Assembly (NCBI RefSeq): GCF_004010195.1
Contig: NC_057747.1
Coordinates: 13,712,747 to 13,776,746 of the forward strand
Direction: 5' to 3'
Origin: Chiloscyllium plagiosum
Taxonomy: Eukaryota
DNA length: 64,000 nucleotides
Shown in pieces: positions 5,190 to 63,057 of this stretch (its first letter is position 1; the number at the start of each line of letters is the position of its first letter). A program made the position numbers and the translations under genes. The notes under the pieces are model-generated. The model worked only from the letters and a program-made list of their open reading frames with translations. It was not told the DNA's origin and did not search any database.

Positions 5190-7345
5190 ATGCACCCAGG
5201 AAAATGCATGACAGAAATGTAGAGGTTATTTAGGGAGTGCTGGCTGATGGTGCTGGATAGATTTGTCGAACTGAGGCAAGGAAGGGGTGGTCTGATGAAG
5301 GAATATTGGGTGACAAGGGGAAGAATGAAGCTTACTTAAGTTTGAGGAGGCAAGGATCAGACAGGGCTCTAGAGGATTACATGGTAGCCTGGAAGGAACC
5401 GAAAAATGTACTTAGGAGAGCTAGAAGGGGCATGAAAAGCTTTAGAGGGTAGGATTAAGAAAAATCCTAAGGCATTCTGTACTTATGTAAGGAACAAGAG
5501 GATGGCCAGAGTGGGAATAGGGCCAATCAGGTATAGTGGAGGGAATTTGTGCTTGACGTCAGAGGAGATAGGGAAGGTCCTCAATGAATACATTGCTTCA
5601 GTACTCACTACTGAGAGGGACCTTTTCATTTGTGAGGACAGAAGAAACAGGCTGTTACGCTCAGACAGGTTGATGATAAAAAAGAGGATGTGCTAAAAAA
5701 TTTGAAAAACCTAAGGATAGATAAGTCCCCTGAGACAGATGGGATATACCCAAGGTTTGCAGAGGAAGTCATGGAAGAGTTTGCTGCACCTTTGGCAATG
5801 ATCTTTGCATCCCCACTGTTCACTGGAGTAGGCCAGATGTTGGAAGGTGGCAAATGTTATTCCATAAAGAAAGGCATAGGGATAATCCTGGGAATTATAG
5901 AATAGTCAGTCTTACATCTGTGTTGGGCAAATTATTGGAGAGGATTCTGAAAGAGAGGATTTATAATTAGTTGGAAAACCATAGTTTGATTAGAGATAAT
6001 CAGCATGGCTTTGTGAAGAGCAGGTCATGCCTCACAAGCATTGTTGAATGATTTGAGGATGTGACATAACACATTAATGAAGGTAGAGAAGTGAATGTGG
6101 TGTACATGGATTGTAGCAAGGCGTTTAATAAGGTTCCGAATTGAGAGTGTGGTGCTGGAAAAGCACAGCAGGTCAGGCAGCATCCAAGGAGCAGGAGAAT
6201 CAACGTTTCGGGCATAAGCCCTTCATCAGGAATGCCCGAAATGTCAACTCTCCCCTCCTCGGATGCTGCCTGACCTGCTGTGCTTTTCCAGCACCACACT
6301 CTCAACTCTGATCTCCAGCATTTGCAGTCGTCACTTTCTTCTAGTTTGATAATGTTCCCTGGTACACTCATTCAGAAAGTAAGGAGGCACAGGATACAGG
6401 CAAAGCTGGCTGTCTGGAAACAGAGTTGTCTGGCCCATAGAAGACAAAGGGTGGTAGTGGATGGAAAGTATTCAGCCTGGAGCTCAGTGACCATGGTTTT
6501 CTACAGGAGTCTGTTCTGGGACCTCTGATGTCTGTGATTTTTATAAATGACTTGGATGAGGAAGTGAAAAGGTGGTTTAGTAAGTTTGCTGATAACATGA
6601 AGGTTGGTTGAGTGGTGGATAGTGTGGAGGGCTGTTGTAGGTTGTAGGATGTAGAACTGGGCTGATAAGTGGCTAATGGAGTTCACCTGGAAAAGTGTGA
6701 AATGATTCATTTCGGAAGGTCGAATTTGAATGCTAAATACAGGGTTAAAGGCACTTGCTGTGTGGAGTAACTGAGAGATCTTGGGGTCCATGTCCATAGA
6801 ATCCCCAAAGTTGCCACCCACGTTGATAGGGTTGTTAAGAAGGCATGTAGTGTGTTGGCTTTCATTAGCAGTGGGATTGAGTTAAAGAGTCGTGGGGTTA
6901 TGGACTGGAGGGCATTTCTTATGAAGAAATGTTGAGGGAGCTAAGGCTTTACTCATTGGAGCGAAGAAGGATGAGAGATGACTTGATTGAGGTGTACAAT
7001 ATGATGAAAGGCTTAGACAGAATGAATAGTCAGAGACTTTTTTCCTGAGGGGAAATGATCATCACAATGAGGCATAATTTTAAGGTAATTGGAGGAAGGT
7101 TTAGGGAGATGTCAGAGGTCAGTTCTTTACACAGAGAGTGGTAGGTGCGTGGAATGCATTGCCAGCGGTGGTAGTAGAGACAGCTATATTAGGGACAGTT
7201 AAGTGATTCCTGGAAAGGCACATAGATGATAGTAAATTGAAGAGTATCTAGGTTAGTTTGATCTTAGAGTAGGATAAAAGGTCGGCACAACATCAATGAC
7301 CGAAGGGCCTGTACTGTGCTGTACTGTTCTATGTTCTATGTTCTA
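5190..7345 (+). mobile_element. 5'-truncated CR1 LINE (ORF2 and tail)
   Basis: KSPxxDGIYPR and QHGF motifs plus a KFADN variant; 3' end with a (gttctat)n tail; many stops. Confidence 0.85.
6140..6340. mobile_element. Palindromic Penelope terminal-repeat-derived insertion (family A) with a minus-strand hammerhead core at 6198-6233
   Basis: Inverted arms. The minus strand reads ATTC CTGATGA A GGGC TTAT GCCC GAAAC GTT GATT. Confidence 0.75.
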
Positions 7346-9856
7346 GTATTCCAAAAGTGGCCTACCCAATGTCCTGTATGCCATAATATGACATCCCAAC
7401 TCCTATACTCAATGCACTGACCAATAAATACAAGCATACCAAACCCCTTCTTCACTATCCTATCTACCTGTGATTCCGTTTTCAAAGAACTATGAACCTG
7501 CACTCCAAGGTCTCTTTGTTCAGCAACATCCAGCACCTTACCATTAAGTGTGTAAGTCTGCCCTGATTTGCCTTTCTAAAATGCAGCACCTCACATTTAC
7601 TTGAATTAAACTCCATCTGCCACTCTTCAGCCCATCTGATCAAGATCCCATTGTACTTTGAGGTAACCTTCTTTGCTATCCACTACACCTCCAATTTTGG
7701 TGTTATCTGCAAACTTACTAACCATGCCTCCTATATTCACATCCAAATCATTTCTATAAATGACAAAAAGCAATGGACCCAGCACCAATTCTTGTGACAC
7801 ACCGCTGGTCATAGCCTCCACTTTGCAGAGCAACCCTCCACCACCACCCTCTGTCTTCCAACTCCAAGCCAATTCTGTGTTCAAATAGCTAGTTCTCCCT
7901 ATATTTCATGTGATCTAACTCTGCTAACCAGTCTACCATGAGGAACCTTGTCGAATGCCTTACTGAAGTCCATATAGATCACATCCACCTCTCTGCCCTC
8001 ATCAATCCTCTTTGCTACTTCTTGAAAATACTCAATCAAGCTCATGAGACACAATTTTCCATACACAAAGCCATGTTGCCTTTCCTTAATCAGTTCTTGC
8101 CTTTCCAAATACATGTAAATCATTTCCCTCAGGATTCCCTCCTACAACCTGCCTATCACTGATGTCATCCAGACTCAAAATGTTAGCTTGCTCTCTCTCC
8201 ATGGATGCTGCCTGACCCATTGTGATTTCCAGCATTTTTTTGGTTTCAGTACAGATTCCAGCATCTGCTGTAATTTGATCCTAAAAGATTTTAAGATCCG
8301 TTTCTGTTCAGCTTAATGTGATAGCCAGAGTGGCTTTCCATAGGGGGCCCCAGTTACAAGGCAATCATTTTCCTGCCAACATTTTAACATCACATGGTCT
8401 GCAGAGTACCTCAGCTGCTGGTTCAATCAATGCATTCAAAATCAGAGATGGCAAGAATGGAACAAGGAGTGAAACCTTCCCATTTTACCTACCCAGCAAA
8501 TCCCTTCCCACTAGCAGGGCAAGTTAAACACCCTTTCACCCCACCTACAGAAACAGAAGATCAGCTGAAGCTGGTAGGATGAAGGAAGAAAAAAGATGAG
8601 GTGAGGATGTGACCAAACATTTTTGTATAACTTTCAACGTTATCTGTGTGCTTCAATGGAGTTATGTTTCAGGATTTTTTTTTTCTTAACCAGGAGTCTG
8701 AGAGATAAGTTGATCAATGATTCCCCGAGGTTCCTCAAGTAATTACTAGCATGTTGTTAGAATTAATGTATGTCAAAAAGAGTAAGGGAACACAGGCTAC
8801 GAAAGTAACAATAAATACAACGACAGATGGGAAGTGTCTGGTTTGCTGCTTAACCAATGAACCACAACCTGCAAACTTATGTTTCAACAAAGTAGCAGTA
8901 CCATGGGTTATAGAGAGCTGAAACATTACACTAAACACTTTGAATCATATATTGGGCATGAGAACAAACTAGGACAGTTGTTTTAGCTCCAAGACTTGAA
9001 TTGATTCAAACCAGACTGATGTGTTGATAGCTTGACACTTTTAAAATGGTTCCCTTTTGGATGTGGAGACTTTAAAACCAGTTGACATTCCTTCAAAGAG
9101 TCTGCAAAAATGATGATACAGAAATATACAGTTATTGCAGCACAGAAAGATACCATTGGGACCATCTAGTCTATGCAAGCTTTCCATACAACAATCCAGT
9201 AGGTTCCATTCCTCATTCCATCCCTGTAGCGAATTCCCTGGAGGTGTATTCCCTTCAAGAGCCCATCCAACTTCCTTTTATAATCATTTGTCATCTCTGC
9301 TCATGGATCGCAAGTTCCAGGCTATTACACTGACTGAGTAAAAAGAGTTTTTCCTTACCTCCCTCCCCACACAAAACATTTAACCTGTAACCCATTGTCC
9401 TTGCATCACCATTGCAGGAATGGTCTTCCTTATCTACCTTATCTAAGCCTGTAATCATCTCTGGACACCATTGTCAAAGAACTTGTCAATCTCTTGTGCA
9501 CCACAATCTCACCTTCTCTAATCTAACCTCCATTCAAGCTAAAACCTCTCACTGTAAAGTCATTCTGGTAAATCTCCACTTCATCCTTAGAAAAATCCTG
9601 AGGTACACAAAAGAATATTTTGTATTGTGGTCTAGTGAGAGTAAAAGGAATATTATTTTTGGAAATACCATACCTGCCTGTTTGATGCTGACACTATTGT
9701 GTCAAAATTGGGAAAACTGAACCATTTTCATAAGTGGCTTCCCTCACCTTGACAAGTATAATTCTTCACTGACTGTACAGGAAAGGATACTCTAATAACA
9801 TTGTAAACATGTTTGTGCATTCTTGAAGTATTTTCTAATATCTCTTGCTTCATTAG

Positions 9857-10218: not shown

Positions 10219-10445
10219 AAGGTAAAAACAATGACTGCAGATGCTGGAAACCAGATTCTAGATTAGAATAGTGCTGGAAAAGCACAGCAGTTCAGGCAGC
10301 ATCTAAGGAGCAGCAAATCGACATTTCAGGCAAAAGGCCTTCATCAGGAATCCTGATGAAGGGCTTTTGCCCGAAACGTCAATTTTGCTGCTCCTCGGAT
10401 GCTGCCTGAACTGCTGTGCTTTTCCAGCACCACTCTAATCTAGAG
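10219..10445. mobile_element. Palindromic Penelope-derived insertion (family A)
   Basis: About 95-bp inverted arms centred on caggaatcctg, flanked by ttcatagagat at 10208-10218 and 10446-10456. Confidence 0.8.
10349..10384 (+). ncRNA. Minimal type I hammerhead ribozyme motif
   Basis: AATC-CTGATGA-A-GGGC(TTTT)GCCC-GAAAC-GTC-AATT: conserved core, 4-bp stem II, palindromic ACGU stem III and a GUC cleavage triplet. Confidence 0.7.
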
Positions 10446-18088: not shown

Positions 18089-18099
18089 GGAAAGGAGGA

Positions 18100-19715
18100 G
18101 TCAGAGATGGATCAGATGGAAGTCCATTTCATCTGGTAATCTCCATACTGCTCGCTTCTACCTCCTTCCGAAAATCCACAAACAGGACTGCCCCAGTAGA
18201 CCCATTATTTCTGCCTGCCCCTGCCCCACCGAACTTATCTCTTCCTACCTTGACATGGTCTTTTCTCCTCTGATCCAGTCCCTGCCCATTTACACCTGCG
18301 ATTCCACTGATTCTTTACGCCAGTTTAAGAATTTCCAGTTTGCAGGCTGCAGCCACCTCCTTTTAACAATAGATGTGCAATCCCTTTACACATCCATCCC
18401 CATCAAAATGGTCTAAAGGCTCTCCAATTCTTCCTGGAACAAAGGCCTAAACTGTCCCAGCCTACCACTACCCTCTTCCTCCTGGCTGAGTTCATCCTCA
18501 TCCTCAACAAGTTTTCTTTTATCTCTTCTGATTTTCTTCAGGGCAGAGGGTTGGCCGTGGGTACCCTAGTTATGCCTGTCTCTTTGTGGGCTACATGGAA
18601 CGTTATTTGTTCTAGTCCTATCCCAGACCCCACCCACAACTCTTTCTCCGATATATTGACGATACCATTGGTGCAGCTTCCCTCTCTTATCCAGAATTGG
18701 AAAGGTTCATCAATTTCGCTTCCAATTTCCACCTCACCCTCACTTTCACCTGGTTCTATCTCTGACTTCTCCCTTCCCTTCCTCGTCATCTCTATTTCTA
18801 TTTCTGGGCATAGACTGGCCATTAATATCCACCATAAACCCACTGAGTCCCACAGTTACCAAAACTATACATTCTCACACCCTGCTTCCTGTATAGACTC
18901 TATTCTCCTAGTTCCTCCGTCTCCGTTGCATATGTTCCAATGAGGCCACCTTCAACAAGGGAACCTCTGAAATGCCCACTTTCTTCCTCAACTGAGGGTT
19001 CCCTAGCACCGTTGTTGACAGGGCCCTCAACCAGGTCTGACTGATCTCCTGGCCTCACCCCTTTTCGTCCTTCCTGCAACAGCACTAGGGTTCCCCTTGT
19101 CCATTCCTGAAGAAGGGCTAATGCCCGAAACGTCGATTCTCCTGTTCCCTAGATGCTGCCTGACCTGATGCGCTTTTCCAGCAACACATTTCCATCTCTG
19201 ATCTCCAGCATCTGCAGACCTCACTTTCTCCTTCCCCTTGTCCTTATCTACCATCCCAACAGCATCCACATCAGAAGATCATTAGCCACCATTTCCACTA
19301 TCTCCAGCAAGATACCACCACCAGACACATATTCTCCTATCCTATCTTGTCCACCTTCTGCAGAGACCATTCCTTCCAGGGCACCTTGGTCCACTCTTCC
19401 TTCACTCCCAACACTCTCCACAGCCCCATGGCACCTCCCCCTGCAATCACTGACAGTGTAAAACCTGCCCATTTACTTTTCCTCTCCTCCATGCCCACGG
19501 GCCCAAATATACCTTCCAGGTGAAGCAGCGCTTTACCTGCATTTCTCATAATCTAGTCTACTGCATTTGCTGCTCACAATGTGATCTCCTCTACATTGGG
19601 GAATCTAAGTGTCAACTGGGTGACCACTTCACAGAACATCTATGTTCTGTCTGCAAAAATGACCCTGAGCTTCCAGTTACCTGCCACTTCAACACACCAC
19701 CCTGTTCCCTGAGGG
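18100..19715 (+). mobile_element. Penelope-like element (RT and GIY-YIG endonuclease), decayed
   Basis: RT motifs FYLLPKIHK..RPIIS, DVQSLYTSIP and YIDD, followed by FTCISHNLVYCICCSQCDLLYIGES (GIY-YIG with CxxC, Neptune-like). Confidence 0.88.
19103..19138 (+). ncRNA. Minimal hammerhead ribozyme motif at the edge of the 129-bp insertion 19103-19231
   Basis: ATTC-CTGAAGA-A-GGGC(TAAT)GCCC-GAAAC-GTC-GATT. The insertion is flanked by a 12-bp TSD ttccccttgtcc at 19091-19102 and 19232-19243. Confidence 0.72.
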
Positions 19716-22274
19716 TAATTTAAGAAATAGATAAGACTGAGCAGTGAATAAACTTTATTTACTAAAACAGCTGCCTTGGTTTCTCTCTCTCTCCTGCAGG
19801 CCTGGATACATTTTGACATTGCAGCAGATCCATCTGAACCCTTTTGCTTGTGAGCTCCATACCACAAACCCTGCCACCCCCCTCCGACCCCAATATTTCA
19901 AAAGAGCTGCCAGTCCCTGACTAACTGGTGACCCTCAGTAGGTAAGACTTTCACCCCCAAGGGGATGCCTTCCACTGCTTAATTGTCTGTGGTTTGGTGA
20001 ACCTTCCCAAATAGAGACAGTGTGAGTCTCCAGCTGGCATGCAAAACCCTGAACATCTCAACAAGATTCCACCAGCTATTTAGTTTTTTGGAGTTTATTT
20101 CAAGCTACAAAAGCTAATATTAACAAATGTATTTTAATTTTAACAGGAGCTTTGTTAATCTCAGCAGAATCTGTTTTGATTCAATGAACAGAAAGAAATG
20201 TATAAACTTCACAAAAGATCAAGTCATACACTCACGACTAATTAATCAAAGCTGCATAATTCTACGTACAAAGTTAAAAAGTCAAGTTTGTGTTTTATTC
20301 ATGGGATTAAACCTTACTCTCTGTAGAATGAGCTGGTTGTGAATTTTAGTGCAGCGATGCAAACGGTGAAGCTGTGACATTTAAGATTGTGTGTGTAGGC
20401 ATTACACATTGTTAAGCTACAGCATTTACAAAGGTTTTGGGATGTGTCAATCTCGCTGCACTATTATCTATTCGGTAGGTATCACAGCTCCAAAAAGAAA
20501 ACGGTATTAATAAAGGGAATAAAATATTTATTCTGTCTAGAAAGTTCCACACCGAAAGACCACAGCATCAAACTGATTTTAGTAGCCAGTAAATTAGATC
20601 CCAAAACAAACCTGACTCCTGCAGTTGAAGGTATGATTAACAACAATCAAATCTAATGGCTTTCAGGAAGGGTCAGCAATTAGTTGTTATGTATTTAAAG
20701 GAAGATTCAGGTTTTGTTTTAAAATGTTTGACTACTCTTGTCATAAGGCACAAAGTAGCCGACCTCTCCTAGTGATATTGTGAGACTTGAACATAGTCTC
20801 ATTCTGAACAAGAAAACAGTGCACAACAGGATCAACAAAGGGCAGATGGCAGTGCAGGATGGAAGTGAAGTTCTATCCACCAAGGAAGATGAAAAAGCCC
20901 CAAAAAATTAAACCATTGTCTGTCAAAATTAACAACATGAATGGCAATTTCAGAGGGGACTTTTTTAGGAAATATATTAAATTAAGGTTCACCTGCCTGT
21001 TCGGGAATGAAAGATCACATGGCTCAAATTGAAAAAAGAGAACAGACATTCTCCCAGTATCCCACAACAACGTCAACGTTTCTCAGTTACAGTGAATCCA
21101 TAAAGTGCTGAGTCTGTGGAATTCCCAACAAAGGGAGTCCCAACCCACAAGACCACCCAGAAGATTTGACTCTACTTTGGGATTGTTGTGGAAGAATCAC
21201 TCAATATTCTGTAGGATTTGACATGCAGATCCTGGCCTAGATACAGCTATCCTGTCATACTTATATGTCAGAATAATCATGATTTTCAGGACCAAACTTT
21301 TTAAAACATATATTGATCACTACTGGTTCGAAGTACGGTAATTGAAATGTGATTGTTAATCAACCAATGGTCAGCAGGGGGAGTACTAAAGCAACATTCA
21401 CAGAATTTCACAGACTAGATCCTGATCCAATATAAATAAACTAAGAGCTATAGGTTGTTGGAAATCTGAAACAAAAACAGAAGTTGCAAGAAAAACTCAG
21501 TCGGTCTCACTGTATCTGTCAGGGGAAAACCCTCTGCTGAGGTTTTCCAGCAATTTCTGTTTTAGCTTCAGATCCTGATCCACTTCTGTGTTAATCTTTC
21601 CCCAACTCCATTCTTTCCCTCCTCTGACTGGGCATAGTTTCACAAGTGGCAGCTGCTCCCGATATGTTGTCCATATGGCCATTCCTCATGGGCGAGTCCT
21701 GGAGCTGGAGGAAGGAAAGCAAAGTTAACTGCCACTTTGCTGTTTCAAGTGTGAGCTGGTAATTTAGGGAGGAGCTGGTGTCACGGTAATGTTGCTGGAC
21801 ATATAATCCAGAATCCTAAACTAATGTCCTGGGGAGGTGGGCTCAGTCACAGCAGATATTTGAGTTGAATGAAATGATCTGTAGTTTTTTTTTAGCCCAA
21901 TCGCAATCACATAACCAGAGTCAGTTGGTTGGTAAAAACTCATCTGGTTCCCTAATACTTTTTAGGGAATGGAAATATGCCATCCTTACCTGGTCTGGCC
22001 TATGTGTGATTCCTGACCCACAGCAATGTGGTTGACTCTTAACTGTCCTCTTGGCAATTAGGGATGGGCAATAATTGCTACCCCAGCCAGCAATACCCAC
22101 ATCCTACAAACAGGTTTAAAAAAACTGTGTCCACTAGTTATATTCACCCAGTCTGTTCCATTTATAAAGCAGTTCACTGGGCACATACTGCCTGAATTTA
22201 ATGGGTCAATCTACAGGAAGTATTCAATTTCGAGCCATATAACTGCAAGTTGATCTTCTGTATTTTAAACATTG

Positions 22275-22487
22275 GAGAGAGTGAGGATTGCAGATGCTGA
22301 AGATCACAGTCAAAAGGTGTGGTGCTGGAAATGCACAGCCAGTCAGGCAGCATTCGAGGAGCAGGAGAGTCGACATTTTGAGCATAAGCTCTTCCTGATG
22401 AAGAGCGTACGCTCGAAGCGTTGACTCTCCTGCTCCTCGGATGCTGCCTGACCAGCTGTGCTTTTCCAGCACCACACATTTTGACTC
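22275..22487. mobile_element. Palindromic Penelope-derived insertion (family A variant)
   Basis: Inverted arms; core CTGATGA A GAGC(GTAC)GCTC GAAGC; near-perfect flanking duplication tgtaWtttaaacattg. Confidence 0.75.
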
Positions 22488-27141: not shown

Positions 27142-27360
27142 CTGAAAATGTGTTGCTGGAAAAGCGCAGCAGGTCAGGCAGCATCCAAGGAGCAGGAGAA
27201 TTGATGTTTCGGGCATAAGCCCTTCTTCAGGATTCCTGAAGAAGGGCTTATGCCTGAAACGTCGATTCTCTTGCTCCTTGGATGCTGCCTGACCTGCTGC
27301 GCTTTTCCAGCAACACATTTTCAGCTCTGATCTCCAGCATCTGCAGTCCTCACTTTTTCC
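27142..27360. mobile_element. Palindromic Penelope-derived insertion with back-to-back hammerhead cores
   Basis: 14-bp TSD ctggtgtacatgaa at 27128-27141 and 27361-27374. The plus-strand core at 27232-27267 is CTGAAGA A GGGC TTAT GCCT GAAAC GTC. Confidence 0.8.
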
Positions 27361-28714
27361 CTGGTGTACATGAAAGTCTGGACCCTCAGGAATCTGTTTG
27401 ACTTAACTATCCTTGAGGCAACGAGGAAGAGGTGATAAGTACTGGCCTAGCTTGTAACGTCCTTATCCCCTCAACAAATAAACAAGAAAAATACAAAAAA
27501 GTCAGAAGGTCCTCCAATCCAAACACAGGAGTAGCCATTAAAATAATTAACCATCTATGTAGTACATTAATTCCTGAGCCTGATCAAGGCTGAAAAAATG
27601 AAAAAAATTGTAGTTATTCAGGGATTTCACTGTTTCCTGAAAATAGCAGAACATCTTGAAGACATCTTATAATAAAAGTTAAATATGTAAATACTGAAAA
27701 TCTGAAATAAAATCAAAATATGCTGGAGAAATTCAGTACATGTGGCAGCATCTGTGGAGAGAAAAACAGAGTTAACATTTTGAGTCTGGTTTGAGTTTCC
27801 TTCCAGTTCCAGTGTCATATTGGACTTGAAAAGGTAACTCCGTTTCTGTCTGAAAGACGTCTCTCTTGGTCAGTAGAAATCAAAATAGATCACCATCAAT
27901 AGCGTGCGTAAGACCATTTTTTGTTGCACAGACATCAGTAGAAATCCTGGAAAGGTTGTGGTCCAATGATTGTTCTTTCTCCTCTGCCTCAAAAGGTTGT
28001 GGGTTCAGGTTCCATTTCAGAGAAATGAGCATAAAATATAAACTGACCTTCCACTGTAGAAGTGAGGGAGTGCTGCTTTGTCTTCAGTTGAGACATGAAA
28101 CAAGTCCTTGGGTGGATTCATAAGATCCTGTGGCACTCATTCCACTAAAGAGTAGTGTGGAGTTTTGGTGCACATTTATTCTTCAACGAACATGACTAAA
28201 AACAAAAATTAAAGAGTTTGAAAACACATTGAAATGCCCTGAGCAAAAGCATGATACTTCCTCCATTGATGTATTTTGAAGTGGAGACAGCCATTCCAAC
28301 TAAGCCATTGCCATCAAAGACAAACTCAGTTCCTGTTGAAGTATTGTTAAAGTGGCTGTACAGATAATCTAACATCAACACACATCAGCAATTCCTCTAC
28401 CACTATCTAGCAGAGCAGAGATTGAGAATAAAGAATTTTCCTTTATTCTTCCAAGAAATGTGAATGTCATAGGCAAGACCAGCATTATGTGCCCTTTCCT
28501 AATAGCTGAGTGGCTTGCTAGACCATATCTGGAGGCAGTTTAATAGTTAACTATGTTGCCCACACATAGGCTAGATCTTTGAGGAGAAAGTGAGGTCTGC
28601 AGATGCTGGAGATCAGAGCTGAAAATGTGTTGCTGGAAAAGCGCAGCAGGTCAGGCGTTTCGGGCATAAGCCCTTCTAGACCAGGTAAGGATGCCAGATT
28701 AGTGAACTAAATAA

Positions 28715-29830
28715 AAATCTAAAGAACTGTGGATGCTGAAAATCAGAAACAAGAACAGAAGTTGCTGGAAAAGCTCAGCGGGTCTGGCAGCATCTGTGCA
28801 GAGAAATCAAAGTTAACATTTTGTCCGGTGACTTTTCCTCAGAACTAGGATAATGTTGGTTTACATGCAAAAGATAGGATGGGGGAGGGGATAAGGACTG
28901 AATGATTGGTAGAGATTGAGCCCAAAGTGAGAGAGGAATAGTTGGACAGACAAAGGAGTCAATAATGATCTAGCTGGGAGAGTGAACAGCTGTTAATGGA
29001 GACTGTTAGTGGCTAACAATAGATAGTGTGTATTGGCAGACTATATGATAACAAGGCATGATGTGTGGAGATGGGGGCTAGGACATGGAGAAGTTCAGGC
29101 CCTAAAATTGTTGAACTCAATATTGTGTCCAGATGTGGTGTTCTTCCAGCTTGCACTGAGCTTTGCTGGAGCACTGCAGAAAGCCTGAGACACAGATGTT
29201 GACCAGGGAACAGAGTGGTGTGTTAAAGTGGCAGGCAACTGGAAGCTCAGGGTCTTTGCAAGCAGAATGTAGATGCTCTGTGAAGCGCTCACCCAGCCTA
29301 CACGTCATTTCCCCACACTGTGAGCAGAGAATTCGGTCGACTAGAAAGTAGGACATGCAGGTAAAGTGTTGCTTCACATGGAAGGAATGTTCAGACTCTT
29401 TGATACTGAGGAGGGAGGAGGTAAATGGGCAGCTGTTACACCTTCAGCGGTTGCAGGGGAAGGTGCCTGGGGCTGTGGGGAGGGGAGGTGGCGGGATGTT
29501 GGGAGTGAAGGAAGAGTGGTCCAGGGTGTCCTGGAAGGAACGGTTCCTGTGGAAGACAGACAAGGGAGAGTGGGGAATATGTGTCTGGTAGTGGTATCTT
29601 GCAGGAGGTTGTACAAATGGCAGCTGATGATCTTCTGGATGTAGATGCTGGTGGGATGGTAGGTAAGGACAAGGGGAACCCTATCACTGTTGCCAGAGGG
29701 AAAAGAGGGGGTGAGGACAGAAGTGTGGGAGATGGGTCAGATTAGCTCCCATCAGTTCTGAGGGAGGGTCAGAATCCAAAACATTAACTTTGATTTCTCT
29801 TCACAGATGCTGCCAGACGTGCTGAGCTTT
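28715..29830 (-). mobile_element. Penelope-like element fragment (GIY-YIG region and terminal repeat)
   Basis: Minus-strand KQHFTCMS...CSQC...RLGERFTEHL...PVACHFN, homologous to 19520-19700. Inverted terminal-repeat pieces lie at both ends. Confidence 0.8.
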
Positions 29831-31789
29831 TTGTTTTACGTTAATGAACTGTATCGGTTTTTACAACAATCAATAATAATTGTTGTGCCATCATTACTGA
29901 GACAGGTTTTATATTCCAGATTTATTAATCAAACTAAAGCCTGCCATGTCAGGAGTTGAATCCATATCCGTAGAGCATTAACTTGAACCGCTAAACGACT
30001 AACCCAGCAACATGACCACTTCACCCACATCTCTCCCAGAGGGTGGGGAGTAGGTCAATTAACCTCTTGAGCCTGGTCCCTCATTCAATAAAAGCATGGC
30101 TGATCTGATGTGGTCTTAACTCCACTTTCCTGCTTGCTTCTTATAAGCCTTGATTCCCTTGTAGATCAAATATCAATCTAACTTGACTTTGGACACATTC
30201 AATGACCAAGTTTTCACTGCTGGCTGAGGTCAGAGATCACAAACACTAACAACTTTCTGAGACAACTTTCTCCTTGTCTCCGACCTGTGTATTGCTCAAT
30301 GCTGTTGTTAGTTGTTGGTTCAAGATTCAAGGCAACTCCAGAGTTTCAGGTCCTCATCGAGATTTCCTTCAAGTTTCTCAAGATACATCTGTGAGGCACT
30401 GGACTTTAATTTCACACAACTCAAGAAAATGTTTATTAACTGTGGCATACTCATTTTCTGCTGAAGCAAGATAATTTATTCCCATAGGTGTACCTTCTGT
30501 CTAGAATCTGAAATCTCCGTATCTCACTCCAATCGGGTTTCATTAAAATGCGCATTATATATTAAATACATAACGAGAGACAACATTTCCTAAAGCACCA
30601 CTGCCAGTTTGTCTAATTACTGGCACTGCTCTGGGCAGCTGGCACTTCACAACTCAAAGAGAAAAGCTTTGACTCAAATTACTTTTTCCCTTCATAAACA
30701 ATGACATGCAAACCAACCCCTCTGCCACCATGATTCAGTCTCCTGCAGCCTAGCCTTCACGTGAAGTCTGCTTTTAACTACAGAATCTCTCCACTGTACA
30801 TCACACTGAGGTTACCTTTCATTTCTGTACCTTATCAAAGACAAACGCATACACCGAGGCAGACAAAAAACCCAGTCGAGAGAAACATTTCCTTTCTGCC
30901 TCTAAGACAGATAGAAAGCAGAAGCAATAGCTTAAAGCCCATAAATATATTCAATCCATAAACAAAACCTATAAACTACTTTAAATGTGGGTTTTGTTTT
31001 AAAATAGCAAATTAAATACATTCTAATTTTGAAAAAGGCTTTTTCTATTCGTGAGAAGAGTAGACCCATTACATCAAAGCAAATCATTTAATATAAAACC
31101 TTAAAATGTAAATGATAAGTAATAATAATTAATTAAAAGATTGCAGGTATCCCCTGTCAATCAAGGTACACCCATATTCAATCACAGATATACCTGATAT
31201 CTTGTATTTTGCCTCATGTTCTCATCCACACAGTGTCAAGGAACACAATGCAATGTGGATTATGTTGCAAACACATACACACACTGGCTTTACTCGCAGG
31301 ACAGAATGCAGTTGACAATGTCATGAGATCACTGGCACTTCCACTTCACACACCCTCCAATGAACCATTTTGCCCAGAACCTAAGTGCTGAGGGGGCAAG
31401 AATCTCACCAATGCCATCCTGCCCAATTATTTTCCTTTCTCAATCATCAACCACCCACCACCCCTCCACACTCAATCCCTCAGCATCCCCATCACCTCTA
31501 GGGAGGATGAAACGTCACCCAAATATTTTGGTTTTCCCAACTTTTAATTGCAAGAAATTTCTGCCTATCCAATACTGGATGAAAGCTGAACGACAAAGCA
31601 GAGACTGTAGTCAGGTTGAGAGGTGCTGGTAAGTAGGAGAATCCAGCAAACTACAACTGAAGACTGTTAAAGTAAGTATAGACATGGATGCTCAAAAACT
31701 GGAGAGTATACAATGGAATTTGCGATGTTTGGAAATCAATACCCATCGACAGCATGTCAAAGATATAAAAGTCAAGGATGTAAGGAGTG

Positions 31790-32918: not shown

Positions 32919-32920
32919 AT

Positions 32921-36132: not shown

Positions 36133-36461
36133 GTAAGGCATGTTTTAGCATTCATTATATTTGAATGTGCTAACTGGACAATGTCATTGTATGGAAATAC
36201 TCAATTAGAGTGGACGAGGAGGATTTTATAAGATGTTGACCCTTTCATCGTATTAGTCGCCACATTACTCTGCTGAAAAGGGACAGTCACATGGTGCATT
36301 CCATTGGCAAATCAGGGATGAGCATAGAGTGACAGGGAGACCCTGTGTCTGCATCCAAAGCTTCTGATTTCAAAGGGGTGGGACCAAGAAAAGGTGAAAT
36401 GTTCAGTTACAATTAAAAATCACACAACACTAGGTTATAGTCCAACAGGTTTAATTGGAAA

Positions 36462-36496
36462 CACTAGCTTTCGGAGCGACGCTCCTTCATCAGGTG
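36462..36496 (-). ncRNA. Minimal hammerhead ribozyme motif (family B)
   Basis: The minus strand reads CAC-CTGATGA-A-GGAGC(GTC)GCTCC-GAAAG-CTA-GTG: stem I CAC/GTG, 5-bp stem II and a palindromic AGCU stem III. Confidence 0.72.
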
Positions 36497-37786
36497 GAGC
36501 TAGAGTAGGCAATTCAGCCCCTTGAGCCTGCTCTACCATTCAGTAAGGTTGTCTGACCTGATTGTAAACTCCGAATCCACCTTCCTACCGAGCCAGATAA
36601 CCCTTCAGCCTCTTCCTTAACAAAATTGTACATCTATTCACAATCAGCTACAGCAATGGATTGAAACATGACAACATTTAGTGAGGTCAGTAATCACCCT
36701 TCATGCAGTGAATTAATTCTAGGGTCCAGCAGAAGCACAAGGTATTGTAAGCTTCATTCTTGTGCACATAGACAGTACCCACACATGCTAAAGATTAAAA
36801 CCACAAATTGTTCACTAAGCCGACAGTAATTAGGTTGGAAGCGCAACATGGATAATTATTAATGAATGATACTTTAATGTAAGGCAGATAATGGCAGTTG
36901 TATTGTCACTGTTTTAGTAATCCAGAGACACAGACTAATGCTTTGAGGACATGGCAGTTGCTGGGATTTAAATTCAAGTAATAAATCTGAAATTAACAGC
37001 AACTCTTAATGGTTGCTGACCATGGAATTATTGCTGACTGTTGCAAAGGCCTATGTGGTGCACTAATGTTCTTTAGAGAAGGAAATCGGTCAACCTAACT
37101 TGATCAGGCCTACACATGACTACAGACCCACAGTGCTTGACTGTTAAATAACCTCTGATTAAGCCTAGTAAGCTGCTCAGTTCAAGGGCAATCACAGACA
37201 GGCGACAGTTTGCCAGTGACACGTGAAAGAATAAACATTACAAAAATATTCACAGAATTCTTAGCTTAGCGTCAGTGCTCCGCACTGTGTTGTGTGACCA
37301 TTCAGCCTGCAAATTTCCACACAGGCCACTTACAAAGTTATCGCCTACGCACAAATAAATTAAGCTGACCAGAAACACATATAGAAAAAATTGAGAGGCC
37401 AAAGTGCACAGCATTTTGTATTAACTGGCATCTGCACCAGACACACTCTCTACTGGAATTTCCACGTCATTTTTTTTGCAGACTCACCACCAAATTAACT
37501 AATTAAAAACAATCAAATATGTTACAACTACTAACCACAGCCCACCAGCAGCTGCCTAAGTCAATTATTAATTTTTTAAGCAACCCCACTCAGACATAAA
37601 GTGACATGTCAGGTGCTGCTGGGATTGAAACTGAGATTTTCTACATCAGAGTTATGGACACTACCACTGTGCCACAAGAGGCCACCCTAATGTGGCTGTT
37701 GCTTATTTCTTTCTTATTGGGATCAAGATTTCATAATCAATAAAGGCCAAAGACAAATAAAAAGCCAGATTTTGGTATCCCTGTAA

Positions 37787-38294
37787 ACTGACTGCCGACA
37801 GATCGTGTGCTTTTTAAACAAGATAGAATGTATCTGCAAATACAAATTCACACAATCAAAAAGCATACGATCTGTCGGCAGTCAGTCCATGTGACATGTT
37901 ATAAAATCTTACTTTGGAAATAGAACCAGTCTGAATCAAGGTTGGAATACACACAGACTCTAACCTCACACCTTTAATGCATTGTCTGAACTGAGATGTC
38001 ACCTTATTTTAAATAAAACCTTAAGTTATCTTGGGAATGTGACTTGAAAGAAGTTCTGAGATTTACATATTAATGAATCGAAACCTGCAACCCATTCTAA
38101 GTTATTAGAGATTTAACAGCAATCTAAGTTTGTTCAATACATGGCATCAGTTGTATAACACTTTGATCTTTTGCTATAAATTCCGTGTCCTATGATCCTG
38201 CCTCACTAGCTACCTGATGAAGGAGCAGCGCTCCGAAAGCATGTACTCCCAAATAAACCTGTTGGACAATAACCTGGTGTAGTGTGATTTTTAA
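37787..38294 (+). mobile_element. Penelope terminal-repeat element (family B) with a 5' inversion and a hammerhead core at 38211-38245
   Basis: The 3' end is the reverse complement of 36414-36496. Core TAC CTGATGA A GGAGC AGC GCTCC GAAAG CAT GTA. A 29-bp inverted repeat lies at 37787-37815 and 37858-37886. Confidence 0.68.
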
Positions 38295-38344
38295 TGAGTT
38301 AATGTAGATCGAGTCATAGGCATTTTAATTACTCTAGCTAATAA

Positions 38345-42596: not shown

Positions 42597-42720
42597 TAAA
42601 AATGTGTTGCTGGAAAAGCGCAGCGGTCAGGCAGCATCAAAGGAGCAGGAGAATTGATGTTTCGGGCATAAGCCCTTCTTCAGGCTCTGATCTCCAGCAT
42701 CTGCAGTCCTCACTTTCTCC
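42597..42720. mobile_element. Family A Penelope-derived insertion
   Basis: 15-bp TSD tagatgttctgttct at 42582-42596 and 42721-42735. Confidence 0.78.
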
Positions 42721-42854
42721 TAGATGTTCTGTTCTGACAAGTACCTGCCCAGCTTTCAATGAAGGTGTTCCATCAAGAGGATTCATATTTGCAGACAGAG
42801 CAACTCAACTATTAGGGTACCATATCCAGCAAGAGATGCTTCTTGGAGAACAAG

Positions 42855-43150: not shown

Positions 43151-43899
43151 AAACAACATTAAATGTCTGTTCAAAAACAAAAACCCAGCAGGTCTGGCCA
43201 CATCTGTGGAGAGAAAGCTGAGTTAATGTTTCGGGTCCAGTGACCCTTCTTCAGGACCTGGAGCCGAAATGTTAAAACTGCTGACCTGCTGAGTTTTTCC
43301 AACAATTTTTGTTTTTGTTTCTGACTTCCAACATCTGCAGTTCTTTGATTTTTCTTGTTAAAGTTCTGTTCAACGGTTTCCACAATAATGAATGTACTTT
43401 AATAACAAACGTTGCATGAACTAAATAATCTGATATTGATAGTTTAATTCATTAAGAACTGGGGAACCTTGTTCACACAAAGGATCTAAACATAAGGCTA
43501 TAGGTTCATGTCCTCATTGATCTTCAAGGTAGTGAAAGGTCAAGACAAATGGATTTGACCTCATTATGCTTTAATTACCATTACTGCTACCCAATAGTAG
43601 GGCAACAATGGCAGACATGATGGAATACCTTGTATCCCAGCTTGTCTCTTTTTTCCATTTGTGGGTGTGAATGACTGAGAAAGAGGAAAAACATGAAAGA
43701 AATAGAGCTCAGGCTGAAATAAAGGAACTTGATGCAGACTTTTCTGCTGGCCTGCATGAATCAAATACTATGTCAGAAGCTGGATCATTGTCCATATAAA
43801 TAAGGCAGTAAGGTATTAAAAGATGTGAAAAATCCTTTGGGTCAAGACTTGCTCCAGTGGAGAGAGAAGCCTCTGTGTGGTGAGAGCGTTTTAGGGTAG

Positions 43900-44250: not shown

Positions 44251-45704
44251 GTTGGGTACAGCACAACTATAGCTCCTGCCACAGACTAAGATGACACGAT
44301 CTCAAAATAAAATCAAGGTCACTGTGGACTGATATTAGGAAAAGTATTTTTGATACAAAAAGCAATGGAAATCTGGAACTCTGTCCCCCAAAAGGCGAGG
44401 AAGGATGCTGAGTGAACTGAATTTCCAAGACCAAGATTGGTGGATATATGTTAGATACAGGAATCAAAGGTTACGAAACAAAGATGTGGGAATAGAGATT
44501 AGGTGTAGGTCAGCTGTTTATATTAGGAAGTGGCAAAACCAGCTCAATGGCTAACTCTTGTCTTTATGTTCTGTCTTATGACAGAAGCCAGACCTGATAG
44601 GGTCGGAGAATTGATAAAGCAGAATTGGTGCACAATTGTGAACTTAGAAAAGGGCAAATAAAATGTTTTACTAATTACTGCTTGCTAATTAACAAAGTCA
44701 ATTCAAAACCAGGATGAGTGTTACTCTGGTCACACAACACTAGCACGCAGTGGAATAGGAATTACCTTTGCCATAGTTGGTAGTGCCCTAACAGTACGGT
44801 GGTCACTGCTAGGATTACAGCCAGATCCCAACGAGGTGGACGTTATGGAAGTTACACTGAAGCTAATAGATAAGAAACACTGGGCGTTGGGGGTGGGGAG
44901 TTTGACTTCAATGGAAGCAGACAACCTACCAGAGGAAGGCCCTACTCCCTGTTCTTCTTTCAACCAGTAAAATCTGTCAGGCTATCCCACTAGGCAGATA
45001 AAATAATAGAGGAAGTTGGCTCAAGGCCAGTAATTTTCGACTTCAGGGTCTCTTAAGCTCCAGGGAGGATCTCAGTGCCTCCACCCCTCAGTAAAAGGGA
45101 AGATGTCAGAGTGAGCAGACCCAGTTCTGAAGAAGAATCACTGAACTCGAAATATTAACTCTAATTTTTCTCTCCACAAATGCGGCCAGACCTGATGAGT
45201 TTCTCCAGCGATTTCTACTTTTGGGCAGGCCATATGCTGCATTTAGTAAGCCACTTCCCACTCATGCCTTCAAACTCACCAGCAGATTTTGAGATTTTAA
45301 AATCCAGCCCCTTATATCCCTGGGTTTTACAATGTTCACACAGTGTGGGATATCCAAAGGATGAATGGTAAATATCCACAGACTGTCAGCAAAGGACTCC
45401 CAAAACTTTAGCCCAAAATATTTAACACCCTGACTATTTAGCCTTAATCAAGGGGATGCATCAATAAGAAAACTGAGAGTCTGATTCTGCAGTGACACAT
45501 CTGTCGCAGAATTTGCACAGCAAATTTAAAACAAATTATAGTAAGTTAAAAATACGAGTTCTCTCAAACTGACTCAACTGACTCAATCAGTTTCTAGCCT
45601 GAATACAATCATTATGCTTTAAAAACAGTGAAAAGAAGAGTTGATAGCAACACATATGTACAACTTCTAAAAAGAATAATCATAATAAACCTTGCGTTTC
45701 AGAA

Positions 45705-48126: not shown

Positions 48127-48284
48127 AAGGTTAGAGTGGTGCTGGAAAAGCCCATCCTGATGAACGGCTCCTGCCTGAATCATCGATTTTCCTGCTCCTC
48201 AGATGTTGCCTGACCTGCTGTGCTTTTCCAGAACCACTCTAATCTTGACTCTAAGCTCCAGCAATTGCAGTCCTCACTTTCACC
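48127..48284. mobile_element. Family A Penelope-derived insertion with a degenerate core
   Basis: 14-bp TSD caatattcagggct at 48113-48126 and 48285-48298. Confidence 0.75.
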
Positions 48285-49524: not shown

Positions 49525-49992
49525 GCTAAAAAAATGTGTTGCTGGAAAAGCGCAGCAGGTCAGGCAGCATCAAAGGAGCAGGAGAATCGATGTTTCGAGC
49601 ATAAGCCCTTCTTCAGGAATGAGGAAGGTGTGCCAAGCAGGCTAAGCTAAAAGGTAGGGAGGAGGGACTTGGGGGAGAGGCGTTGGGAATGCAATAGGTG
49701 GAAGGAGGTTAAGGTGAGGATGATAGGCCGGAGAGGGGTTGGGGGCGGAGAGGTCAGGAAGAAGATTGCAGGTCAAGAAGGCGGTGCTGAGTCCGAAGAT
49801 TGGGACTGAGAAAAAGTGGGGGGAGGGGAAAAGAGGAAGGTGGAGAAATCTCCCCAAGTCCCTCCTCCCCATCTTTTCTCTTAGCCTGATTGGCACACCT
49901 CCTCATTCCTGAAGAAGGGCTTATGCTCGAAATGTTTTTCCAGCAACACATTTTTCAGCTCTGATCTCCAGCATCTGCAGTCCTCACTTTCT
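49525..49992. mobile_element. Longer family A Penelope terminal-repeat insertion with an internal inversion
   Basis: 16-bp TSD cccactggaatactta at 49509-49524 and 49993-50008; inverted arms with two degenerate hammerhead cores. Confidence 0.8.
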
Positions 49993-50466
49993 CCCACTGG
50001 AATACTTATCCAGACAATTGTTCCCAGTCAAAAATAGAAATTGCTGGAAAAACTCAGCAGGTCTGGCAGCATCTGTGGAGAGAAATCAGAGTTAACATTT
50101 TGGGTCCAGTGACCCTTCTTCAGACAAAGGCTGCATTTATCTGAAACAGATCGTCTGTGTGTCAGAGTCCTTTTAAAGACCATATCAAATGGGAAATGCA
50201 AACCCCAGTTGTCCTGCCCAGATAGTCAACAACCAGTCAAATGTACATTGTCCCAAAGAGAACAATTATCCACGTAACACTCCATGGGCAAACTTTTGTC
50301 AGAATGTCCTTTGTGTTGGATTTCCTTTAAAAATTTGGATAAATACATGTCTATACTTATAGCCTCTACTTGCACCAATGTTTTGGAAACTTTTAACTAA
50401 ACTGTTTATTTGTGTGGTTTCCAAGGCCATTGGATGATATTTGTTATCCTTTTCCAATAAGTGTCT

Positions 50467-52427: not shown

Positions 52428-52555
52428 GGAGAAAGTGAGGACTGCAGATGCTGGAGATCAGAGCTGAAAATGTGTTGCTGGAAAAGCGCAGCAGGTCAGG
52501 CAGCATCCAAGGAGCAGGAAAATTGACGTTTCGGGCATGAGCCCTTCTTCAGGAA
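52428..52555 (-). mobile_element. Family A insertion ending at an intact minus-strand hammerhead core (52521-52556)
   Basis: 11-bp TSD tgattgtatca at 52417-52427 and 52556-52566. The minus strand reads ATTC CTGAAGA A GGGC TCAT GCCC GAAAC GTC AATT. Confidence 0.8.
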
Positions 52556-53263
52556 TGATTGTATCATTCTTTTCATCCAAAATGGACTCACTGACGAGAG
52601 ACGCTGAGTTAGAAAGCTGGGTCCCCAGAACATTACAGGAGCCTCTGGATTAATACTCTAATGATAAAACCACTAGACCATCACCTCCCCATTATCTGAT
52701 AAAGGGTGTTGGGACCAGCTACACTGTATTCATTCCATTTGTGTACTGACCCTAAAAGCAAATACAACCCAAATTAAAAGTATACATTATTACATCACTG
52801 GAACATTTTCATGTTTAAGACCAACTCTTCCTGTGACCAGTGAGTGAGGTAATCCATTCACTGTCATAGTATTGTTTTAAATCTGTTCATGAGATGTGGG
52901 TATCTCTGACTAGGTTAGCCCTTAATGCCCATCCCTAATTGCCCAGACAATGACATGAGCCTATGATAAATTGCAACTGGATTGAGACAGTACAAGCTGA
53001 CATCATTCAGGATTCACAGAGAAAATTAAAGATTGTGGGCTTGATGCAAACCCTGATCAGCATCATTGTACCATTCAGATTCCCTTTGTCTATTAACACT
53101 ATAAAAAATAATTGAAAGAGAGTCTTCAGTAGGATCCACTAAACATTGATCATTATATGACAGTGTGGTGTAACAATCTCAAGTCATAGGTAATCTCAGT
53201 TACTCCTACATACAGCAAACTAGGGACATTCTGTGCTGTTACCAGTATTTATCTCCTTTGCAG

Positions 53264-60458: not shown

Positions 60459-63057
60459 GTAAGTCATAATGCACACTCTAACCAATATCACTACAGGCTA
60501 AAATCCCACAGAGATGCAGGAATGTGCTCCCACAATTGCTGAGAATGTGGTGCCGGAAAAGCACAGCATCCGAGGACCAAGAGAATCGAAGGGCTTATGC
60601 CTGAAACATCGATTCTCCTGTTCCTTGGATGCTGCCTTGTCTGCTGTGCTTTTCCAGCACCACAATCTCAACTCTGATCTCCAGCATCTGTGGTCCCCAC
60701 TTTCTCCCATCAATTACTCGCCACTAACAACTTTTATGAATCTACAACCAAAGATGACTCAAAAGTAACAAAATTACAAAAGTAATTGTTTTCAAACAAG
60801 TTTAAAAGGTTGATTGATATACCTTAAATATGGCTTAAAATTACATTTTTCATATATGGTGCTCTAAACATATTAAAAAAAACTGCCTTTTTAGTGTTCC
60901 TTAAGGGTATCCTGCCCATTGTGTTATGTCTATTCTGAACTTTCAGAGTTCTAGGAATTATTTCTTGCCAAGAAGAAGCTAATCTTTCACAGGTAGAAAA
61001 GAGTGTAAGCATTTAACATCTGTGTTTCTTTTATTTGTTTGTTGTGACAAGTAGAGAAACTGGGATTGTTCTCCATTGAGCCATGAAGATTAAGATTAGA
61101 CTTTCTTTCTTCACTCTTGATACATGGGTGTCACTGTCTGGGACCCCATTTATTGCCCATCCCTAGTTGCGCTTGAGAAGATGGTGGTGAACTGCCTTCT
61201 GGAATCACTACAGCCTATGTCCATATTCACTTAGCAGTGGTGTACAAATGATCAAAGAAGTTGTTACCAATAATAGGAATGGACAGATATTGGCAAAAGA
61301 AACTGAGTTAAGATGAGATTACTTTTCAATGAAGAAAGTTCTTCTGAATTGGAAGAGATTGGCTCAAAGGTAGCTTCTGTTGTGTAAGGTCATGGCTCTG
61401 TAAGCGTTAGTGTTGGGTGCTGCATGAGACTTAACCAATCTTATGGTGTCATACCATTTTGGGTGGAGACATAAGGAGTCTAATGCTCGATCCTGATGTG
61501 TCAGACACATCATCCTGCCTCTTGATGGTCTTGGTAGCTATGTCTAAATAGCTAAATCATTGTGCACTTATTGCTGTTGAGGAAATGGTTGTTGAGCCAA
61601 GTGTTTCTTTTTGTTAAGATAAAGCATTAAACAGGCCCCTGGGCCCAGTTTCAAAAGGATTACTGGCAGCACTCTACCACAACCAATAATCAGTATTGGC
61701 TGGTTCCACAGATACACAATAACTTCACTTGGGAATTGGGTTGCTGTTTGAAAAGGAATGTTTTGTAGGGTAATAGGTAAGAGCAAGGGAGTGGCAACAC
61801 CAGTTTCTGTTCTGCACAATTTTAATCTTGCGTTTAACAAACTCCTCAAACAGGACTTGGCAAAACTCAAGAATACCATATTGAGACCGCAATAAAATAG
61901 TTTTGAGTTGATTCTAAAATTAGGTTCAATTTTCATGCCAGAGTTATGTAAGGAGGTATTAGTTGTCCTGGATTAAAATCTTGAGCAGCATTCTTCAGTA
62001 ATAATGTTCGACGTAACTCAAAGCCCTGTGTTAGTTCGATAGTTTTAATCTGATGTGTTTCAACTCTGTGTAACATTACTCCATTAAGGTTCACAAAATT
62101 AGTCAGGCTATAAATAATAGTCATTAAATGGTTTTTTTACAAGCTTCCATTTGCAAATGATACCCCCTCAGTGGCGAGCTTAGTTAGCAATCTATTGCAG
62201 AAAATATGACGCTCACACACATCACTAAAAACCTGAAGTAGAACATGATTATTAATAGCAGCAATAAGTACAGCAGAATTACCACTGGTGAAAGATATTT
62301 CAAAAGGTCTTCAGTTCCAAGTTACAATTGTAGGTGTTTCACTGATGTTCAGACATTCGCAATATCTTCCATCAGATGTAGGTGCACAAACAGAAATTTT
62401 AAGGTTAAGGTATGTAAACATGTTTTGTTTTAAAGACTGCATTTCCTTCCAGATCACTGGGTTTCAAATGAATGTTTACACAGCATTATATTTTAGATTG
62501 AGTTTTAAGTTCAATTTAAAATTAGTTTTGCCAGCATTTTATTCTCTAAGAAACATACCATAGGGATATGTGACATTTCATTACATTTTGCTGTTTTCTT
62601 CTTTCAATCAAGGGCTTTCCCCTCACAGAGTATGTGTTTTAGATAATTATTCATTCAAGATTATTCAGAAAGTTCAATTTTGGCCTGGGATCAGTGCAAG
62701 ACCAACTACGTTCCCAAAGTGCTTTGCATCAAACTAAAATACTGCAGATACCAACAATCTGAAATAAAAACAGAAACTGTTGGAAGCACTCAATGGAGAA
62801 GGCAGCATGTGCAGAGAAAGCAGCAGTAATTTCATATTATCTTCAAAATTAGCATGTTTAAAAGCGGTCATAAAAATTCTTTGTCGTGTTTGGATACCTA
62901 GAAAAATATCTAGTTCGTCTATATTTCCAACTCTTCTTGTTTAGGATTTTTTTTGTTGCATGTAGTCTAGTGACTCTGATATTCCAGAAGTGATCCTCCT
63001 AACTTGCAATAAAGTGGACCAACTCATTCCATAATACATGTTGCTCTGCTTTTACAG

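Follow-up and report, generated by a model that had tools for sequence, protein, structure and literature searches.

The 64-kb window analyzed here, a stretch of the genome of the shark Chiloscyllium plagiosum, contains 11 short insertions that carry a hammerhead ribozyme motif, intact or decayed, and that we group as family A. These insertions are very probably extremely 5'-truncated retrocopies of the ribozyme-bearing terminus, a pseudo-long terminal repeat (pLTR) plus tail, of a Penelope-like element (PLE), most likely of the Neptune clade. An earlier note on this DNA had listed at least 11 related insertions of about 100-470 bp, many of them with exact target-site duplications (TSDs) of 11-16 bp. 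BLAST and nhmmer recovered all 11 positions, and all belong to one family comprising 19 arms. The best arm of each insertion scores 46-113 bits, whereas the top match in five shuffled windows scores 8.2 bits. The insertions measure 96-470 bp, sum to 2137 bp (3.3% of the window) and occur once per 5.8 kb. Eight of the 11 are two-armed, with the arms head-to-head, and the other three (19103, 28580, and 52428, each named after its approximate start) are single arms.

The flanking duplications are well above chance. With a cut-off score of at least 9, TSDs are detected in 9 of the 11 insertions and in 3 of 391 random boundary pairs. Five are exact and 12-16 bp long (19103, 12 bp; 27142, 14 bp; 42597, 15 bp; 48127, 14 bp; 49525, 16 bp). 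Imperfect duplications flank 6140 (15 bp, two mismatches), 10219 (15 bp, one mismatch), 22275 (18 bp, one mismatch) and 52428 (14 bp with one mismatch, enclosing an exact 11 bp), and weak ones flank 60540 (10 of 11 positions matching, with one indel) and 28580 (5-7 bp only). Empty sites are present in paralogous repeats within the window for two of the 11 insertions, 19103 (TSD copies at 19091-19102 and 19232-19243, empty site in a paralog at 29723-29615) and 27142 (empty site in two paralogous repeats), which indicates that these two TSDs were made at insertion.

The two-armed copies share a distinctive geometry. Counting from the ribozyme core base C3, one end lies at about +124 in all 11 insertions, the end of the other arm lies at +85 to +91 in all eight two-armed copies, and a tail of 33-39 nt is found on exactly one arm in each of these eight. 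All eight palindrome junctions are distinct, mostly with 1-5 nt of microhomology, and therefore each palindrome formed at insertion. The tail-less arm extends further 5' than the tail arm in four of the eight, which rules out the fold-back of a single cDNA in these copies. The first of them (6138..6343) has a tail-less minus arm with an intact core (N17=U) and a tailed plus arm that begins in loop II; it lies in a CR1-like reverse transcriptase (RT) fragment, and its TSD copies are at 6123-6137 and 6344-6358. The second (22274..22487) belongs to an old subfamily, has a damaged core and carries a compensatory G-C to A-U change in helix II of both arms. In the third (42597..42721) the arms tile the RNA without overlap (minus arm from -1 to +87; plus arm consisting of the tail only, from +89 to +124), the geometry of twin priming as known from L1. 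Both arms of the fourth and longest copy (49525..49994) pass upstream of the ribozyme, by about 235 and 57 nt. The remaining two-armed copies are 10219..10443 (a divergent subfamily whose minus arm carries the tail), 27142..27360 (a near-perfect palindrome plus tail, core bases kept in both arms), 48127..48284 (a short inverted piece and a decayed full arm with tail) and 60542..60707 (minus arm ending at +26 to +28). The single arms, all with tail, are 19103..19231 on the plus strand and 52428..52556 on the minus strand, each of 129 bp, and 28582..28677 on the minus strand, which has a 26-nt internal deletion. Rare variants are common to both arms within 10219, 22275 and 49525, as would be expected if both arms stem from one RNA.

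The earlier note had placed these insertions in a retrozyme- or miniature inverted-repeat transposable element (MITE)-like category. The copies of a MITE would have the same interior, terminal inverted repeats that are symmetric, and a TSD of fixed length. A palindromic DNA transposon moved by a DDE transposase could account for the 8 of 11 copies that are palindromic and TSD-flanked, but all eight junctions differ, the ends are asymmetric by the 33-39 nt tail, TSD length varies between 11 and 16 bp, and single-arm copies also have TSDs. We therefore give a MITE origin next to no credence.

The arm motif comprises CUGA(A/U)GA-A, a 4-bp helix II, GAAA, an ACGU palindrome and then C17, and agrees with the consensus of minimal PLE hammerheads, CUGANGAH-G..C-GAAAN-palindrome-NUH, given in the supplement of PMC4209133. 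The hammerhead identity proposed earlier is thus upheld, as the PLE-type minimal type I form, in insertions that show the marks of PLE machinery. The best-preserved example is the minimal type I hammerhead at 19103..19138 on the plus strand (C3 at 19107, helix II at 19115-19126, GAAA at 19127-19130, palindromic ACGU), with a predicted cut between 19134 and 19135 and a helix I of just 2 bp followed by U.U and 1 bp. Family A has a weak helix I, made up of C-G, U-A, U.U and A-U; in a second family in the window, family B, helices I and II measure 4 and 5 bp.

The statement that each insertion contains a core was correct in part: all 11 core bases are retained in 9 of the 19 arms (7 of the 11 insertions), but CUGA is gone from 28580 and 60540, and A15.1 is altered in 22275 and 48127. 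The full descriptor (palindromic helix III and a helix I of at least 2 bp) is matched by three of the 19 arms, with C3 at 19107 (+), 27236 (+), and 6229 (-), and by nothing in 100 shuffles; one arm of a third family, family C, brings the full minimal-hammerhead motifs in the 64 kb to four. Two of the three family-A arms with the full motif sit in long hairpins with predicted energies of -183 (27142) and -138 kcal/mol, which would outcompete the ribozyme fold according to these predictions. The very large ribozyme population foreseen in the earlier note holds for motifs and not for demonstrated catalysts; most copies are mutated, truncated or sequestered. One of the segments proposed there for cleavage assays, 52515-52560, overlaps 52428..52556, where the core is intact but G1.1 has been lost via CpG decay; with the closing pair of helix I, C2.1-G1.1, gone, it makes a poor test. 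The covariance-model check suggested at the same time did not recover the motif, as no hammerhead model is among the 22 matches at E<=10 in an Rfam scan of the window, and the palindromes gave only sub-threshold miRNA-type Rfam matches.

Structural conservation was assessed in 16 arms chosen for spanning the ribozyme (11 from family A and 5 from family B; 144 cells). Helices I-III are paired in 78.5% of the cells, as compared with 17-52% in slid controls. Eleven cells are altered on both sides, a number reached by 5 of 500 shuffles, although few independent events underlie them: the independent pair changes are the C-G/U-A difference between families A and B and one helix II change from G-C to A-U. 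Because of this, the covariation backs the structure at the family level only. Monomer folds are ordinary (z from -0.03 to -1.14), and minimum-free-energy cofolding of family-A sequences did not yield a dimer hammerhead, a result that is uninformative either way.

A type I hammerhead is also found in non-LTR retrozymes, whose monomers would be released by self-cleavage, circularized and copied into DNA by a rolling-circle mechanism; these elements have a relationship to PLE pLTRs and can occur as dispersed monomers (bioRxiv 10.64898/2026.07.22.740005). However, head-to-tail ribozyme tandems, the defining trait of non-LTR retrozymes (PMC7229834), are absent from the window: none of the six tandem arrays involves family A and all arm pairs are head-to-head. 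The ribozyme is minimal rather than canonical, with its 2-bp helix I, no arm wraps from the tail back to the ribozyme, and at most one of the 19 arms ends at the cleavage site. The retrozyme reading is largely refuted in the window, and we regard it as very unlikely for the family.

Two coding copies in the window point to the Neptune clade. A broken Neptune-type open reading frame (ORF) at 18126..19711 on the plus strand, with RT, CX4CxxC linker and GIY-YIG domains and without termini of its own, is the target of insertion 19103. The earlier note had taken this element (as 18100-19715) for the mobilizer of the insertions, a role that finds no support here: 19103 lies inside its broken ORF, and the one coding copy that has termini carries those of family B. 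The copy at 18126..19711 shows that such elements live in the genome, not that it moved family A. The second, at 28710..29840 on the minus strand, is a Neptune-type PLE that is truncated at its 5' end and bounded by family-B termini; no other coding copy in the window has termini. It comprises an inverted tail-less arm (29755-29840), a broken linker/GIY-YIG ORF (29750-29090), a 3' untranslated region (UTR), and a ribozyme terminus plus tail (28850-28710). Its TSD (10 bp, one mismatch) has a score of 7, which is borderline, being reached by 5% of random pairs. The two coding copies are 76% identical, and in both of them GIY-YIG is preceded by the CX4CxxC linker. A CX2-5CxxC linker before a C-terminal GIY-YIG domain marks Neptune and is shared with Nematis (PMC8557442), so that the parent element is most likely of the Neptune clade, as judged from these motifs. 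A Pfam scan of 14 ORF fragments returned a relevant family for none of the seven PLE fragments. A third Neptune-type RT fragment (31775-32589, minus strand) is 72-75% identical to 18283-18890; a repeat at 31944-32173, with further copies at 40258, 47775, 48990, and 52117, interrupts it.

Families A and B are homologous, with cross-matches at E values of 1e-5 to 1e-13. Family B is continuous with the GIY-YIG ORF, and it flanks this ORF fragment in the same arrangement as in family A, with a TSD, which supports a PLE terminus as the source. For family A, the only candidate for such continuity is the upstream tract of 49525. The left arm of this copy differs by only 1-4% from 42597, 28580, and 27142, with which it forms a young subfamily, yet it extends 235 nt further upstream. 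The pyrimidine-rich upstream tract may correspond to the parent's 3' UTR, possibly reaching the end of the ORF near 49776-49850. The far end resembles Neptune-type C-termini over about five residues only, and the putative ORF end has no convincing match among 162 proteins. Since 49525 shares its subfamily with the shortest copies, the separate non-autonomous family that the earlier note had proposed is unnecessary.

The 5' ends of the arms, which we set from the junctions and partly by eye with an uncertainty of a few bases, are sharply clustered. Ten of the 19 arms end at -6 to -1, and 13 at -6 to +5. The stop rate per base is 0.107 in the latter interval versus 0.003 downstream and 0.007 upstream. 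Among the tail arms alone, one per insertion, the end falls in this interval in 8 of 11, for which a uniform rate gives p=2e-8. By eye, family B and C arms also appear to start a few bases before CUGA. At most one arm, the minus arm of 60540, has an end compatible with the cleavage site (+26 to +28), which suggests that the templates were uncleaved. Both 129-bp single arms start at A(-4), to within the 1-2 bases of microhomology. In families A and B this base sits in an initiator-like YYANWYY word; such words occupy 1.3% of window positions, and so the match adds little weight. Other PLE termini have been reported to hold an internal promoter and a motif resembling an initiator (PMC3846280, PMC2377424).

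We tentatively propose, with somewhat less than even confidence, that the short copies are run-off cDNAs resembling strong-stop products, made from an uncleaved RNA whose transcription starts at A(-4) in helix I and which is twin-primed about 90 and 130 nt inside. As the cause of the 5' stop we prefer transcription that begins at helix I, followed by run-off of the cDNA, although a ribozyme that is dimeric or bound by protein and arrests RT may also produce the stop, as may a short master element. If the run-off model is true, full-length copies would depend on a template jump of the kind that LTR elements make, and short or palindromic stubs would be left wherever the jump fails. The ribozyme would then act as an off-switch or a decapping step at the 5' end of the RNA, not in template release. 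Shark genomes would record very many such events, and possibly hold one of the largest minimal-hammerhead populations known.

A short master is the core of a SINE-like alternative, the strongest form of the idea put forward in the earlier note. Here Neptune proteins would act in trans on a solo terminus of 129 bp that carries its own internal promoter. The identical 129-bp extent of two single-arm copies and the sharp clustering of 5' ends fit this well; the Penelope pLTR holds an internal promoter (PMC2377424), and pLTR sequences suffice for mobilization in trans (PMC3846280). However, the young subfamily includes 49525 with its long upstream sequence, family B has both short and ORF-containing forms, and the Rfam scan found no tRNA, 5S or 7SL Pol III head at these positions; a simple-repeat tail is absent as well. 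We consider a SINE-like origin unlikely overall, and such a master can coexist with truncation of a PLE terminus.

Under the preferred explanation, truncation of a PLE terminus, insertion would begin with a staggered cut, presumably by the PLE GIY-YIG endonuclease, leaving the observed TSDs of 11-16 bp. RT would be primed from the cut ends at two internal RNA sites, corresponding to the observed ends at about +124 and +85 to +91, with priming probably from both nicks. The cDNAs would traverse the uncleaved ribozyme and mostly halt at its 5' edge, where the ends are seen. A single cDNA would yield a 129-bp single arm, and two cDNAs joined at their 3' ends via 1-5 nt of microhomology would yield a head-to-head palindrome with a one-sided tail. 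The hammerhead would be the parent's dimer-dependent minimal ribozyme, carried along in copies that then decay neutrally, most of them unable to fold.

Several points weigh against this explanation. Family-A arms have no demonstrated junction to an RT/GIY-YIG ORF, and the upstream tract of 49525 could be transduced flank. The Neptune assignment rests on a linker motif and on matches without clade names. The sharp 5' boundary is unforeseen by random truncation, and a short master element fits it equally well. Variants shared between arms could equally be produced by later gene conversion, and the evidence comes from one 64-kb window.

In six of eight translated arms (for example 19153-19231, plus strand), a reading frame that begins with an ATG at +46 continues through the tail, and one subfamily differs by a 3-nt indel in this region. 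This frame may be the start of the parent's ORF, by analogy with other PLEs; its peptide does not match the N-termini of five long PLE proteins (p from 0.16 to 0.88).

Other ribozyme-bearing loci of families B and C go beyond the earlier list. Family B includes a two-armed copy with the tail on one arm (43174..43357, TSD of 16 bp with two mismatches), a single plus-strand arm with a decayed ribozyme (45120..45213) and a single minus-strand arm (50029..50124). These three belong to a set of older family-B termini, some two-armed and some without a remaining ribozyme, whose other members are at 8171-8285, 21455-21570 (a decayed hairpin of distal parts only), and 27720-27804. Family C, which escapes the A and B profiles and has no coding partner within the window, has a minus-strand arm with a full minimal hammerhead (36407..36499; helix I of 3 bp, helix II of 5 bp, AGCU helix III, N17=A) and a second, plus-strand arm (38213..38295) that is 85% identical to the first. 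No TSD above chance was found for the C arms or for five of the seven B loci tested. A pattern scan of a bacterial and archaeal genome collection for related loci gave 0 matches.

The setting of the insertions, in a window with a GC content of 41%, raises the question of host function. Exon mapping places four tandem DUSP13/DUSP29-like genes of three exons each on the plus strand at 3465-63293, with exons near 3465/9825/22720, 33087/35916/39837, 45750/48673/53260, and 57985/60239/63057; the last gene has 93-97% identity to DUSP29 of Chiloscyllium punctatum, the top match among 127, in keeping with a carpet shark of the bamboo-shark group as the host. Eight of the 11 insertions lie between mapped DUSP exons, 19103 in the sense orientation relative to its host intron, and three between genes (27142, 28580, and 42597). 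It could be argued that the host has kept these copies by selection, as working ribozymes or as hairpin RNAs within DUSP introns, and a first, looser test of core changes (2/141 versus 70/863 downstream) gave p=0.002. That value was set aside, since subfamily-variable columns were mixed in and CpGs were unmasked. With CpGs masked and variable columns dropped, the comparison is 2/141 in the core versus 31/680 downstream (p=0.10), and for non-CpG changes private to one arm it is 2/141 versus 16/680 (p=0.75). CpG decay in helices I-III matches the background (20/45 transitions within the ribozyme versus 16/32 downstream), and monomer folds are unremarkable. As far as shown by this small sample, the parents conserved the motif and the inserted copies decay neutrally, and we consider selection by the host highly improbable.

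Fragments of LINE-type RT and esterase-like ORFs (Pfam RVT_1 and GDSL/OSK-like) occur at 870-1238, 5081-7946, 10709-12504, 17207-18100, 24128-25094, and 51381-51978, and several family-A insertions lie inside or adjoin such repeats. Insertions 27142 and 28580 (at 27128-27141 and 28660-28700) appear, by eye, to have struck nearly the same position of one dispersed repeat, which has paralogs near 12897-12982 and 21962-22057, and about 30 bp separate 28580 from a family-B element; with n=2, this may reflect a target preference. A minisatellite at 46487-47463 (27-bp unit, 36 copies, 97% matches, three long open frames) lies within a DUSP intron. A 100-bp hairpin at 37786-37887, unrelated to these families, has nearly perfect arms about 30 bp long; its Rfam miRNA-model match is far below threshold, and it is possibly a MITE.

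Published work already covers the minimal hammerheads that truncated PLEs leave scattered through genomes, as well as the inverted ends and the tails. Cervera & De la Pena 2014 (PMC4209133) described minimal hammerheads in the Xena, Poseidon, and Neptune elements of fish; most are solitary and dispersed, and they cleave poorly and only as dimers; dimer cleavage of hammerheads was also described by Lunse et al. (as cited in PMC6765202). The motifs of PMC4209133 resemble family A in the CUGANGAH core, the extra base before helix II, G10.1-C11.1, the palindromic 15.2-16.2 and the short helix I, and they likewise include single motifs from truncated PLEs and opposite-strand pairs 100-700 bp apart. 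What sets family A apart is a helix II of 4 bp together with a helix I that is unusually weak. Shark terms are absent from the searchable part of that paper's supplement, one file of which was outside the search. The motif density of the window, if typical, would top the 4,000 motifs reported for coelacanth and the 9,000 for Xenopus.

Non-LTR retrozymes (PMC7229834; Li et al., bioRxiv 10.64898/2026.07.22.740005) are likewise short, non-coding and linked to PLE pLTRs, with a type I hammerhead, and have been reported for one chondrichthyan genome (bioRxiv 10.64898/2026.07.22.740005). They form head-to-tail tandems of 150-450 bp units with canonical ribozymes and circular RNAs (PMC7229834), whereas family A is isolated, head-to-head or single, and TSD-flanked, with a minimal ribozyme. 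Closer parallels come from the PLEs described by Arkhipova 2013 (PMC3846280) and Craig 2021 (PMC8557442). Standard features there are a 5'-truncated copy in inverted orientation at the 5' end and a tail of 30-40 bp that is often one-sided, and head-to-head pLTRs, an optional tail at one end, junction palindromes and solo pLTRs all recur in the window. Their TSDs are 8-10 bp, as opposed to 11-16 bp here, and the middle part of the element is absent in most of our copies. PMC3846280 attributes junction palindromes to self-priming, with which four of our eight copies are incompatible in that a single cDNA cannot have folded back.

How PLEs integrate, regenerate their pLTRs and use their ribozymes are open questions according to PMC8557442, PMC2377424, and PMC11167929, and each of these young shark copies, bounded by TSDs, preserves the two sites where priming took place and the two where synthesis stopped. 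Such copies are prone to mis-annotation as MITEs or, given the weak miRNA-model matches, as miRNA hairpins, and they are likely sources of intronic double-stranded RNA. A search for literature on 5'-end clustering or palindromic PLE stubs in sharks found none, with most subscription papers and Repbase/Dfam outside its coverage; Fig. S2 of PMC11167929 and the supplements of bioRxiv 10.64898/2026.07.22.740005 may bear on the 5'-end claim.

The nearest biochemical counterpart is PAc, a Poseidon PLE of Anolis (Frangieh et al. 2024, PMC11167929), which uses two internal RT start sites in vitro. Its tail is the 30-40 nt between these sites, its protein cuts and extends both DNA strands, and unprocessed RNA is the substrate, with no reads ending at the cut site. 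PAc thus resembles family A in its two start sites, in a hammerhead upstream of the tail and in the use of uncleaved RNA as template. It differs in clade, as the elements here look Neptune-type, and the latter are known from genomic sequence alone. Clustering of 5' ends at the ribozyme edge and ultra-short palindromes are seen here and not in the main text of PMC11167929. Within the window, the copies speak for twin priming rather than self-priming, and for a template that was left uncleaved and whose 5' end is fixed at the ribozyme.

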